DNA of 53,681 bases from Candidatus Nomurabacteria bacterium (GCA_020632155.1 JACKGE010000003.1:1-53681); one strand, 5' to 3'. Positions 43,727-47,318 are shown, counted from the first letter of the stretch. Numbers and translations are program-made. The notes: generated from the sequence alone by a model not told the origin.

Positions 43727-44815
43727 TCAAGTATCAAAATAGCTCAGCTCATTGTGTATATCTATAAATCTAACATTTCCTTCACGGAGTCTTTGAAACT
43801 GTCTTTCCACGTCTTCCATGGTGTAGAGATTTTCAATACTTACTTTTGAATTGATTTCCATGCGTTCCAAAGCTTCATTTATAAAATCAATCAATTTATC
43901 ACGGATTATTAACTGAGCTTTTTTCTTAACTATATATCTGTAAATTGAATAGTATTCCGTGGTGTGATTTTTTCTGGTAATACCTTCGCGCTGATCCCAA
44001 CCAAACTTTTTAGTTAGGATAGCTGCCTGGATGTACTTGTTTTTTTGGAATTCTTCAGCATTAAAACCAATGTTCTGTTCGTTCTGCATTGCTTGCATTT
44101 GAAACTCTGGGATTGTCTCCTTACTTGCCATGTAGAGACGTTGCAGATTTTTATAGAGCTTTCTTTTGTTGCCAAGTTCATTAGGTAAATTAAGTACAAG
44201 TATTTTATCAGCAGGAATTTTTATTACTTGAATTCCAACGTGTGCTTCTTTGGCGTCTCTTGGACTAATTATTTGAAAGTAGCTTTTCCCAATTCGATAG
44301 AGGTTGTGACTTGGAACTATTTTGAGCTCAAACCCAGCTAAGCTTCCATTCTCATCAAGCTCTTTAACAACCTCAAAGTAAACTTCACCGTACATGAGTA
44401 GTTGCTTAGACATTCTTTGGACAAAATCACAAATGCTATATGTTAAATCGTGAGCGTAACCCCTTCTTTCTGAAAGACCCTCAGCAATTATTTGGATTTC
44501 CTCTCTGGTCAATGCTGGTTCTGAGTGCGTAATGTACCTGTCTCCGTTCCTAAAGCCAGTCATTGGCATTATTCCCAAAGTAATGTCGTCGACAAACATA
44601 CCTGAAGCATTATAGTTTCCATGCATAACCCCATTAGATGGTCTGTGAGTCCAAATTGAAAGTTGATCTGATGCTCTTCGCCTGGCCATATATGGTTGTG
44701 CATATCGGTCTAGTTTAAACAGGCGAACAACAAGTTTGGTGTACCAAGCTCCATCGAACACACGCGAGACGACTCGCTCGTAGATTGATGCTAAATGGTT
44801 GGTTAAGTTTCTCAT
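43727..44815 (-). CDS. Hypothetical protein, 362 aa, resembling an HK97-type phage portal protein
   Basis: FVQRMSKQLLMYGEVYFEVV, IPADKILVL, EFQKNKYIQAAILTKKFGW and a C-terminal helix/strand pattern are collinear with portal motifs (by eye). Start 44815 is 1 nt after the upstream stop. Confidence 0.55.
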   Translation of the reverse strand: MRNLTNHLASIYERVVSRVFDGAWYTKLVVRLFKLDRYAQPYMARRRASDQLSIWTHRPSNGVMHGNYNASGMFVDDITLGIMPMTGFRNGDRYITHSEPALTREEIQIIAEGLSERRGYAHDLTYSICDFVQRMSKQLLMYGEVYFEVVKELDENGSLAGFELKIVPSHNLYRIGKSYFQIISPRDAKEAHVGIQVIKIPADKILVLNLPNELGNKRKLYKNLQRLYMASKETIPEFQMQAMQNEQNIGFNAEEFQKNKYIQAAILTKKFGWDQREGITRKNHTTEYYSIYRYIVKKKAQLIIRDKLIDFINEALERMEINSKVSIENLYTMEDVERQFQRLREGNVRFIDIHNELSYFDT

Positions 44816-44816
44816 A

Positions 44817-47318
44817 TTATTCTTGACGCCTTCTCTGCCTCTCCAAACCTTCACGTATGTCATTTGGAAACTCCAGCCCTGCCGCTTCTTCTTTGCCTGC
44901 AAGAAATAGTTCTAAAAAGACTTCCTCGGCTGTTCTCAATTGCATACCCCCAATATTGGAAAGGTATCTAATTAATTCACTCTCATGAGCCGGTTCCTCA
45001 TCGTCAAAGGGTTGTCGTATATCAGGAAAAACCCTCAGCCCTAGTTCAGCCATTTCATGATTAAATCTTTGTTGCCAAGCAGCTCTCAGGTATGCATCAG
45101 GCATTATTTTGAAAATATTGTGTCTGTAGATATGGATAGCAAGAATAAAACCTATAGCTGCGCGAGCATCAGGAATTGATTGAAAATATGTATTCCAAGC
45201 CGTCTCTACTACATTGCGTAATTCTTCGTTTGAATGGAGTTCGGAATATAAAATTGCGAAACCAGACAGTTCAAATAAGTTGACCAATGGCTCTGTTGAG
45301 TAAATAATTTTACTTTCCTCTTCTCCCCAAGCATCAATCTCATCCCGAGTTCTTTGTTGGTGGATAATAGACGCATTAAGTACTACCGGGAAAAGTCTCG
45401 CAAATCTTTCATGGTCATTGTCAGCGCAAGCCTCATAGCATTCCTCTATTCCAATTCGGAGTGCATGGCTGAAATAATCAGGCACCTCGTCCGTTGTAAC
45501 AAGTGTTTGAATTCGGGGAAGTAATAACACGAGAATCTCGGAAACAGTTTTTTCTTTACTGAGTGCCCAATCCAACTCTTCATCCATATTGAATTCTGGC
45601 CATGGTAGATCCAACAAAGTCTGATGTTCAGCGCATCTTTCCAATTCTGCACGAAATCGGTGTACCATACTTGTATATTTTTTTGTAAACTCCAACCATC
45701 TTTGTAAAAGTTGCACCGAATAACCATACTGTTCAAGTTCAATAAGCTTATTTACTGTTTTGTTGAAGTAACCTTGGTGTATGTTTTTAACAAACTCAAA
45801 GTACTCTTTGACTGCATATTGATGACGTTGTAATGAATAGGTTTTTTTGTACCACTCAGCTGTTATCAATTTACCTTCGATTTCAAACTCATTACTTAAC
45901 TCTGAAGCAAGAACCTCCATTCTTTCGATGGTTGCAATTGGGAAATCTGAAGTATAGACACTTTTTATCCCTTCTCGCCATTTAACTCTCTCAACTTTTC
46001 TCAAAAATATATTACCCGGTTCAGTATCTAAATATTTCGCAAACCCAAGTAAGAAAGACAGCGCTACCCTTCCTCTAGAGTCAACAAAAGCCATCTTTCC
46101 TTTAGTGACAGAATTTTGCTTATCTTTTTTAAGGCTTTCAAAAAAGTGCTCGTCAAGAATAAAGAAATCTTCAAATATCTTTTTTGCAGCTTCAACGTCG
46201 AGTCTTTCTCCGTAGAATTCTGGTATGGCAACTATTATTTCATGGTGACTATAGAGAACCTCAAAGTCTTCATTGTCAAAGTGGTTTTTAAGTAGAGCCA
46301 CAAACATTTTAGTTAATTGCTCTTCAAACCATGTGTGATTTATAACGGTTTTAGGGTTAATACTTGTTCCAGTTTCAATTGCTATGCGTTTCTCAATATC
46401 ATCAGCTAAAGCCCAGTTACCGTATTGATATTTAGTTTTAAACCAAAGACTTTTTGTTGGTATTCCTGACTTTAACCTTGAATACTCATAAAATAACCAA
46501 GCAAGGTAGCGCACTGCGACTCCAATTTCATGTGCGTTGAGTTTGACTTTATTTATACCGAAATCCAAGTATTTCTCCGCCAATTGAAAGGATTGCACTA
46601 CTTGTTGGCGGTGATAGTTTTGCAAAAAGTTTTTATTCCAAGAATTAGATGGAGGCCGAACACTTTTGACTGAGTCAGTTATCTTTTTTGTTATCCTTGG
46701 GAAGATTGTTGAAGGTTCTATGAAGTTATACACTTCACTGCTAACTTTCCAGAAGCGAAGAACAATATAGCTCACGCAAATTAACAGAAAAATCAAACTC
46801 GCTGGATGAGGTAGGTGACCAAGACTTTTGGCAACTAAAAGGTAGAGGGATAGAATGCCTGTAATCTCGATTGTTTTTACATATTGAACTCCATGTGGTG
46901 AAGTAAAAAAGTGATTTTTTACATCTTGGTCAGCATTTACGAGCAATGAACTGGCTATACTCGATATGGCAGTAAAATATAAACCAATGAAAACTCCAGC
47001 AATACTCGCAACTGCACCCAAAAAAGTATCGATTGCTTCACTTGAAATTGTTTCTGGGAGAGTAAATTGGTATACGAATATGTGGTAAGACTCTAGTACC
47101 GCAAAGATTACCACAGCATAGAGTGCCGAGAGTATGAAGCCTACCAAGGTAGAACGAAGTAGTCGAATGTCACTTTTTCGCTTGCGTTGCCTTTCATCTT
47201 CTAGGTGTGAATATTTCCAGAAAGCGAAATAAGGCACATTTAAAAACCAATTCTTAAATTGCCAGTAAATTTTCCTTCGCTGCAACCAGCTAATCAGGTT
47301 CGCTTTCATCACGGCCAT
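44817..47318 (-). CDS. Large membrane protein, 833 aa, with 4 N-terminal TMs (DUF2254-like) and a long helical domain
   Basis: Four hydrophobic segments in the first ~190 aa; AT-rich; TGA-TAAAAT 7 nt before the ATG. Confidence 0.75.
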   Translation of the reverse strand: MAVMKANLISWLQRRKIYWQFKNWFLNVPYFAFWKYSHLEDERQRKRKSDIRLLRSTLVGFILSALYAVVIFAVLESYHIFVYQFTLPETISSEAIDTFLGAVASIAGVFIGLYFTAISSIASSLLVNADQDVKNHFFTSPHGVQYVKTIEITGILSLYLLVAKSLGHLPHPASLIFLLICVSYIVLRFWKVSSEVYNFIEPSTIFPRITKKITDSVKSVRPPSNSWNKNFLQNYHRQQVVQSFQLAEKYLDFGINKVKLNAHEIGVAVRYLAWLFYEYSRLKSGIPTKSLWFKTKYQYGNWALADDIEKRIAIETGTSINPKTVINHTWFEEQLTKMFVALLKNHFDNEDFEVLYSHHEIIVAIPEFYGERLDVEAAKKIFEDFFILDEHFFESLKKDKQNSVTKGKMAFVDSRGRVALSFLLGFAKYLDTEPGNIFLRKVERVKWREGIKSVYTSDFPIATIERMEVLASELSNEFEIEGKLITAEWYKKTYSLQRHQYAVKEYFEFVKNIHQGYFNKTVNKLIELEQYGYSVQLLQRWLEFTKKYTSMVHRFRAELERCAEHQTLLDLPWPEFNMDEELDWALSKEKTVSEILVLLLPRIQTLVTTDEVPDYFSHALRIGIEECYEACADNDHERFARLFPVVLNASIIHQQRTRDEIDAWGEEESKIIYSTEPLVNLFELSGFAILYSELHSNEELRNVVETAWNTYFQSIPDARAAIGFILAIHIYRHNIFKIMPDAYLRAAWQQRFNHEMAELGLRVFPDIRQPFDDEEPAHESELIRYLSNIGGMQLRTAEEVFLELFLAGKEEAAGLEFPNDIREGLERQRRRQE

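Follow-up and report, generated by a model that had tools for sequence, protein, structure and literature searches.

A stretch of 53,681 nucleotides (nt) from Candidatus Nomurabacteria bacterium (GCA_020632155.1 JACKGE010000003.1:1-53681), here called the window, contains two adjacent genes, A and B, on its minus strand. According to structure prediction, the product of gene B has the fold of a phage portal subunit, in which wing, stem and crown take the same relative positions as in portals of known structure. The product of gene A is predicted to be a large membrane protein. The two genes together span 3.6 kb, and they recur as a pair in other bacteria and on plasmids, often beside defence genes. 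The pair is read here as a mobile two-gene module that defends against phages or mobile elements and acts as a membrane-tethered portal mimic. The chances of this overall statement are put at about even, and those of the particular mechanism lower.

Gene A (44817..47318, minus strand) is an open reading frame (ORF) of 833 amino acids (aa) with an ATG start, and its product appears to consist of four transmembrane (TM) helices and an alpha-solenoid. Gene B (43727..44815, minus strand) is a 362-aa ORF for a putative soluble portal-fold protein. The junction of the two genes (44813..44819, minus strand) has the sequence cgt caa gaa TAA T ATG aga. The original prediction had described a translationally coupled TAA-T-ATG pair at this position, and the junction is exactly as claimed, with both ORFs at the coordinates given. 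The mechanical ORF list extends gene B up to a TTG at 44902. Homologs begin at the ATG at position 44815, and this ATG was taken as the start of B because the homolog alignment supports it over the TTG. Scans for promoters and terminators around the A-B operon found nothing above chance.

The fold of B was explored with an AlphaFold2 model built from a 79-sequence alignment without templates. The model has a mean predicted local distance difference test score (pLDDT) of 88.4 and a predicted template modelling score (pTM) of 0.85, and only its first ~60 residues are uncertain. When the model was compared with the PDB by Foldseek, each of the 50 highest-ranked matches was a portal, headed by the HK97 portal 8cez (E 4.5e-5, probability 1.0). 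Other matches include 8fql (HK97), G20c, P23-45, phage 812, Douge, Bas63, P74-26 and lambda, and a Corynebacterium HK97-family portal, 3kdr, is among the best. The probability stays at 1.0 down to rank 31, and the query-normalised template modelling score (TM-score) is 0.40-0.46 among the better matches. The top 50 entries in BFVD are likewise all portals or portal-type proteins (best E 3.3e-6, TM-score up to 0.49), nearly all of them with a Foldseek probability of 1.0. The alignments to portals cover 355-400 columns. The expectation that a model of 43727-44815 would match portal structures is thus borne out in both libraries, and the exclusivity of the portal matches is the strong point of this model-based assignment. 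The portal-like core of B comprises aa 65-362 (43730..44623, minus strand), where equivalents of the wing, stem and crown are placed by Foldseek and hhalign.

A weaker signal was found at the level of sequence profiles. A portal profile was made from HK97 gp3 and 13 diverse homologs from phage records (14 sequences). Residues 127-209 of B were aligned by hhalign with residues 112-184 of gp3, with a score of 28.9 (P 0.0055). The reversed portal profile scored 14.7, and 300 block-reversed shuffles had a mean of 14.3 and a maximum of 25.6, so that 0 of 300 reached 28.9. The profile-profile signal between B and HK97 portals is real, yet it is too weak to prove homology alone. The aligned block holds FVQRMSKQLLMYGEVYFEVV, which corresponds to F...L..GNAY.I.R, and IPADKILVL. 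In a greedy alignment, B 65-362 is collinear with gp3 39-401, with low posterior confidence beyond the main block. There, EFQKNKYIQAAILTKKFGW falls on the DAQ..E.RKF..EIA..F.VP helix and the REGNVRF segment falls on the G..T.NE.R motif. A collinear match to HK97-type portals had been claimed by eye. The first two of its motifs reappear in the independent hhalign block, and the later ones appear in the low-confidence alignment alone.

Gene B escapes the sequence libraries. No match was found for it in Pfam (E<=1), NCBIfam, PHROGs or PADLOC, and no portal was matched among PDB sequences, whether B was used as a single sequence or as a 79-sequence profile. It could be argued from these results, from the hhalign probability of 6.7% and from TM-scores below 0.5 that the portal likeness is convergent or a modelling artefact, and that B is an unrelated alpha/beta protein that co-occurs with a membrane protein. 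This appears very unlikely. All 100 of the top matches listed, from two independent structure libraries, are portals. The model is of high confidence and was made from 79 sequences without templates, and the sequence signal, which outscores each of the 300 shuffles, agrees in register with the structural alignment. B is probably descended from an HK97-type phage portal, or at least shares its fold.

The family of B is large. An exhaustive profile search identified 1046 related clusters (50% identity) at E<=1e-3, of which 780 score E<=1e-10, and most members are 310-350 aa long. A word-indexed homolog search had found just 5-6 relatives per protein, and a rerun with an alignment of A gained none. 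It is through the exhaustive profile search that the family could be shown to be large. A family-specific motif, MFxEDxxxGIMP, lies near the N-terminus (B aa 73-84; 44564..44599, minus strand) and is without a counterpart in the portal profile. M73, D77 and P84 are nearly invariant in the 79 family sequences, and residues 71-80 have a pLDDT of 95. As a guess, this motif could bind A. The case of B shows that families that are invisible to sequence libraries can be placed through structure prediction.

The clip of portals is the docking site for the terminase and the adaptor (PMC10359639). At the equivalent position in B there are ~20 residues with one short helix (aa 233-252; 44060..44119, minus strand). 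Helices are predicted at 217-232, 237-244 and 253-267, and the first and last of these are the putative stem helices. In the low-confidence greedy alignment, ~55 portal residues (gp3 ~200-277) are unmatched at this position. A much-reduced clip in B is therefore plausible, given the predicted secondary structure and this alignment.

No family was identified for A in Pfam, NCBIfam, PHROGs or PADLOC. The best Pfam result is a sub-threshold DUF6338 (E 0.17), and the sole PADLOC match, to Cas8b (E 0.012, 12 bits), is noise. The original prediction had called A DUF2254-like. That label was not sustained, since DUF2254 (PF10011) gave no Pfam match at E<=1. The architecture that it had described, a 4-TM N-terminus followed by a helical domain of about 640 aa, was recovered as four predicted TM helices and an all-helical solenoid of ~630 aa. 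The TM block (aa 51-194; 46737..47168, minus strand) has approximately four helices in a hydropathy scan of A and 10 homologs. The scan found 3-4 hydrophobic segments within residues 51-194, and these are kept in the ten homologs, one of which is just 17% identical. AlphaFold2 places helices in the membrane region at 29-86, 93-127, 141-165 and 172-199. The N-terminal 50 aa are strongly basic, which, by the positive-inside rule, suggests that the N-terminus and the C-terminus are both cytoplasmic.

The AlphaFold2 model of A has a pLDDT of 77.9 and a pTM of 0.73. Its soluble part, the alpha-helical solenoid (aa 200-833; 44820..46721, minus strand), is predicted entirely as helices apart from one hairpin, mostly at pLDDT 80-93. 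The most conserved segment (aa 279-332, IPTKSLW...WFE; 46323..46484, minus strand) lies just past the membrane block. In an 11-sequence alignment its invariant columns are Y279, K283, I286, P287, S290, W292, W302, A313, W330 and E332. The sole beta-hairpin of A, with strands 294-298 and 323-327, is inside this segment. Foldseek returned only generic HEAT/ARM/TPR-like and designed repeat proteins for A (TM-score <=0.18), and no Walker A, HExxH or CxxC motif is present in the protein. With a membrane block, a helical solenoid and no catalytic motif, the modelled A looks like a membrane anchor and binding scaffold, not an enzyme.

The linkage of B to the membrane gene, which had been proposed as a two-gene system, is kept at all loci for which sufficient sequence is available. 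An A-like gene (816-868 aa) is directly upstream of B on the same strand at each of them, and in these other loci the two genes usually overlap by 4-26 nt. In metagenomes, the pair was found with A of 839 aa and B of 352 aa (L002-4), 833 and 348 aa (L005), 833 and 351 aa (L006), 849/829 and 328 aa (L009-11), 843 and 315 aa (L013), and 860 and 319 aa (L033/34). In named organisms, it was found in Clostridium perfringens (L008, A 816 aa and B 300 aa), on a conjugative plasmid of Burkholderia glumae (L015, 868 and 278 aa) and on a plasmid of Paenibacillus lautus (L016, 856 and 298 aa). Three copies truncated by the ends of their contigs (L001, L014 and L035) fit this pattern too. In one more locus (L007), A is upstream and B (2816-3847) is broken into two ORFs, one of 166 aa for the N-terminal part and one of 120 aa for the C-terminal part, the latter 55% identical to the B-family protein P0002 over residues 227-348. 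This is either a pseudogene or an assembly frameshift. A natural fusion (P0132, 1145 aa, on an 86-kb contig) has the architecture of A followed by the B domain. Because of the translational coupling, the invariant gene order and this fusion, A and B are taken to act as a stoichiometric 1:1 complex.

No third gene is conserved across the A-B loci. In one clade a lambda Ea47-family gene is immediately upstream of A (L009 6880-7419, L010 309-797, L011 619-1158), and in another this place is taken by an HNH_2 nuclease gene, 33 nt before A (L033 6408-7346). These genes may be optional third components.

The pair in the window appears to have come from elsewhere. The guanine-cytosine (GC) fraction over 44-48 kb is 0.36-0.40, compared with ~0.49 in the rest of the window, which agrees with the AT-rich island of the original prediction and points to a foreign origin of the pair. 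That island had also been said to adjoin a tRNA-Asn gene. The tRNA is present (50280-50352), ~3 kb upstream of A and so not immediately adjacent. An Rfam scan found two tRNAs and nothing else. The remainder of the window is a housekeeping chromosome, with genes for MreB (two), MreC, PBP2-type transpeptidases (two), Def, Fmt, Fpg and Ham1. Genes are also present for an M50 membrane protease, ApbE, DsbB and two class II tRNA synthetases, one of the Asp/Lys/Asn type and another of the Gly/His/Pro/Ser/Thr type. The A-B operon is one that was horizontally acquired by an ordinary bacterial chromosome. As had been claimed, a scan of 31 larger ORFs of the window turned up no gene for a terminase, capsid, tail protein or integrase. 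With no phage structural genes there, "orphan" is an accurate description of the portal-like B.

The same holds outside the window. No terminase, protease/scaffold or capsid gene neighbours the pair in ~12 recovered A-B loci, and a tblastn search of 50,697 phage genomes found no match for P0001, P0060 or P0007 (two divergent B-family members and an A). Homologs therefore lie outside head-morphogenesis modules. A portal of a satellite or a phage-inducible chromosomal island was considered and ruled out, as no other morphogenesis genes are present. The broader proposal, in which a virus, satellite or gene-transfer element that has so far escaped recognition uses B as a functional virion portal and A as one of its structural or membrane proteins, would account for the portal fold and for low-GC foreign DNA 3 kb from a tRNA gene. 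It is nevertheless extremely improbable. Capsid, terminase, protease and tail genes are absent from the ~12 loci and from the window ORFs scanned, phage genomes have no homologs, the gene sits inside restriction-modification operons, and the clip required for terminase and adaptor docking appears minimal.

Homologs were proposed to lie near defence genes, and type I restriction-modification, Shedu, GmrSD, SMODS-SLATT, DarTG and SIR2 genes were indeed found alongside the pair. At one locus (L005) the order is hsdR-hsdM-hsdS-A-B, where hsdS overlaps A by 4 nt, and the operon adjoins a Shedu SduA_C gene and a serine recombinase. At another (L006), hsdR-hsdM-hsdS is followed by A-B with GmrSD alongside. 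PADLOC confirmed type I restriction-modification models beside A-B. The neighbours at L009 are SMODS and SLATT genes, DarT and Macro genes (DarTG) and a PIN-TPR protein. At L033 there is an HNH gene immediately upstream, and the other neighbours are a helicase and an MZB protein, a Schlafen-like gene, an integrase, HicB and NYN. The region in Clostridium perfringens (L008) is conjugative-element-like, with MobL, an ArdC-type anti-restriction gene, ParA/ParB and a 958-aa SIR2 protein. At L001 the pair has a serine recombinase and a Hypoth_Ymh protein as neighbours, and VapBC and insertion sequences are beside it on the Burkholderia glumae plasmid (L015). The defence context is qualitative, as it comes from ~ten loci and is not a statistical survey. 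PADLOC was run on 91 neighbouring proteins, and its listing was dominated by redundant restriction-modification models and gave no usable enrichment figure.

The HsdM-like and HsdR-like neighbours at L005 and L006 also give strong scores with the PADLOC models for MADS (mad2, 2.8e-58; mad5, 9.7e-67). The restriction operon at these loci may be MADS-related and not classical type I. Membership of A-B itself in MADS was rejected, since the mad2 and mad5 matches belong to the neighbouring HsdM and HsdR and not to A or B.

Several of these copies are on mobile elements, and the pair could instead serve the maintenance or DNA handling of such elements, as a membrane-docked DNA conduit or in entry exclusion, partition or addiction, and not in immunity. 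A conjugative plasmid, large Paenibacillus plasmids that carry the pair, and the Clostridium perfringens region with MobL, ArdC and ParAB would fit this, as would the recombinases and integrases near the L001, L005 and L033 copies and the fact that portals are DNA channels. Against it, the pair is inside type I restriction-modification operons, where it overlaps hsdS, and among CBASS-like and DarTG genes; the window copy is chromosomal with no adjacent transfer genes; and the pair is not accompanied by a linked ATPase or motor. A role of this kind is judged improbable.

A mechanism can be proposed for the anti-phage reading. A and B would form a self-contained, horizontally mobile two-gene operon. 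A would be an inner-membrane protein with four N-terminal TM helices and a ~630-aa cytoplasmic alpha-solenoid that is without a recognisable catalytic domain. B would be a soluble protein that has kept equivalents of the HK97-type portal wing, stem and crown and has almost lost the clip. The resulting membrane-tethered portal mimic would engage the partners of the portal wing and crown, such as scaffold or major capsid protein and possibly packaging factors. Head-assembly partners could then be diverted into dead-end assemblies at the membrane. Alternatively, engagement could switch the membrane domain of A to a permeabilising, abortive-infection state. We infer the cytoplasmic topology, the formation of a complex and a ring, the trigger, the effector and the defence function itself. 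The full scenario, in which a portal gene was captured, its clip was trimmed and its ring was tethered through the 4-TM solenoid partner to give immunity by a counterfeit head-assembly nucleus, is offered tentatively and is somewhat doubtful.

The pair could also be a defence or toxin module in which the portal fold mimics nothing and simply provides the scaffold of a ring or channel. Here 12 copies of B would organise 12 copies of A (48 TM helices) into a large gated pore through the membrane, which an unrelated signal would open to kill the infected cell. Portals are obligate rings with a 20-35 Å channel (PMC10359639), the fusion and the coupling imply a 1:1 stoichiometry, A has a membrane block without an enzyme domain, and the neighbourhoods at L005, L006, L009 and L033 are those of defence. 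Against this, B and the solenoid of A are each predicted to lie in the cytoplasm, which would put the ring beside the membrane and not in it, and nothing points to a trigger. Such a pore is considered unlikely, though less so than the mobile-element function.

Several observations weigh against the reading of A-B as a membrane-tethered portal mimic in defence. The assignment to defence rests on guilt by association from ~ten loci, and the neighbours are hypothetical genes alone at L002, L013, L016 and in the window. No model of PADLOC-DB 2.0.0, which covers Kiwa, Zorya, Abi families and candidate PDC systems among others, matches A or B, and no recognisable effector or enzyme domain was found in A. 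The model of A was built from 8 sequences, and its membrane part has a pLDDT of 50-65. For B, portal Pfam models match 0 of 79 family members (E<=0.01), and the hhalign probability against the portal profile is just the 6.7% given above. TM-scores to portals are moderate (0.40-0.49) and the Foldseek root-mean-square deviations are large; moderate TM-scores are what one expects when a long subunit of several domains differs at its hinges. If the clip is truly missing, a terminase decoy would be unlikely, and the decoy model is narrowed to partners of the wing and crown. Finally, the family is rare in isolates. B was found on 3 of 72,556 plasmids, and in 185,579 species-representative genomes a degenerate DNA motif matched at two loci, both by chance and without a matching ORF.

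Upstream of A in the window there is an element of ~110 nt that is present in four copies, all within 47364-49333 and none elsewhere in the window. Its core 34-mer is at 47376, 47650, 48534 and 49236, against 0 matches expected by chance. Each copy contains the palindrome CCCTAGG-TTTAA-CCTAGGG and one or two occurrences of an iteron-like unit, AAAGGTGTCTGACCCnATTTTCC. In the minus-strand direction, copies are upstream of gene A and of a 147-aa ORF (49093-48650) and downstream of a 151-aa ORF. The element may serve as a common promoter or operator, mark the boundary of a cassette or be a small repeat that is mobile. A reading of the repeats as an integron cassette was set aside. Copy 1 (47364..47450, no strand assigned) is directly upstream of A. 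It may contain the promoter or operator of the operon and is an uncertain member of the system.

Between A and the tRNA (47442-49837) are the minus-strand ORFs of 147 aa and 151 aa. The stretch at 47780-48520 has short overlapping ORFs only, on both strands, the longest being 181 aa on the plus strand. Pfam gave no match for the 147-aa, 151-aa and 181-aa ORFs, and PADLOC gave none for the 147-aa ORF. The two minus-strand ORFs and the short-ORF stretch may be extra cargo or decayed genes of the same island. Nearer the tRNA, two 55-nt direct repeats (49950-50004 and 50103-50157) are 73% alike. On the minus strand both end in ...GAAAT(T/C)TCTGCCGCCGGAGC, which by eye looks like the T-arm and 3' acceptor end of tRNA-Asn (50280-50352). 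These repeats may be remnant attachment sites of integrations at the tRNA gene.

Directly downstream of B there is a redox or envelope cluster with an oxidoreductase, a 233-aa protein, ApbE, a ferric-reductase-like membrane protein and DsbB. The oxidoreductase (39533-40702) is of the FAD/NAD type and has a long Thr/Pro-rich C-terminal tail, and the 233-aa protein (42359-43060) has an Asp/Glu-rich end. At 22001-27045, in a region that is otherwise housekeeping, there are two overlapping genes. The product of the first (913 aa) has a HerA/DUF87 and TrwB-like ATPase domain, and that of the second (768 aa) is without a family. This gene pair may be involved in DNA translocation or be type-IV-secretion-like.

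Portals count as a defining feature of tailed phages and herpesviruses. A family of ~1000 sequence clusters of non-viral portal-fold proteins would be a new example of cells taking over a part of the virion. To our knowledge, no recruited portal has been known. A literature search for portal-fold proteins in defence, and for co-opted or domesticated portals, found no description, within a coverage that was incomplete. The A-B module is rated as categorically new, with its function derived from context alone. If the proposal is true, this would be the first exapted portal and would introduce a new principle, defence by structural mimicry of the virion. As a defence system, it would represent a new class of mechanism, in which a host-encoded look-alike interferes with head assembly or senses it. 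The pair is compact, is present in culturable Paenibacillus, Burkholderia and Clostridium strains and can be tested directly.

The nearest relatives in structure are the HK97-family portals (PF04860; 8cez/8fql, 4zjn of G20c, 6qjt of P23-45), with which B has its subunit fold and size class in common. A weak collinear sequence likeness is also present and includes the wing motifs L..YG.AY.EI and P.d.Il. B differs from them in that it falls below all sequence-family thresholds and is encoded neither in phages nor near genes for a terminase, protease or capsid. Its constant partner, by pairing or fusion, is the 4-TM solenoid protein. B also has its own invariant motif, MFxEDxxxGIMP, and its clip region appears to be down to ~20 residues. 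As B does not agree with portals in sequence family, gene context or residence in phages, it should not be filed as a portal protein.

Portals are already targets of host defence. SpbK senses the SPbeta portal YonE (PMC12847820), and Avs4 is another portal-sensing defence system. Both show that phage and host come into conflict at the portal. Avs4 and SpbK are STAND NTPase or TIR sensors, whereas here the host protein itself is portal-fold and no NTPase or TIR domain is present.

Encapsulins (with the HK97 capsid fold), tailocins and the type VI secretion system, and gene transfer agents are virion folds that have been recruited to cellular roles. In contrast to these, A-B has no other virion-derived component. 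PrrC in EcoprrI and RloC are abortive-infection genes embedded in type I restriction-modification loci. The pair at L005 and L006 likewise follows hsdR-hsdM-hsdS, like a second-line module on a restriction system. It differs from PrrC and RloC in that it is without an ABC-ATPase/P-loop and an anticodon-nuclease domain, and most A-B loci are unlinked to restriction-modification. Kiwa (KwaA with 4 TM helices, and KwaB) and Zorya, like A-B, combine a multi-pass membrane protein with a soluble partner in defence islands. A-B is distinguished from Kiwa and Zorya by the lack of a PADLOC model match, by the size of A, which is four times that of KwaA, and by the predicted portal fold of B in place of DUF4868.

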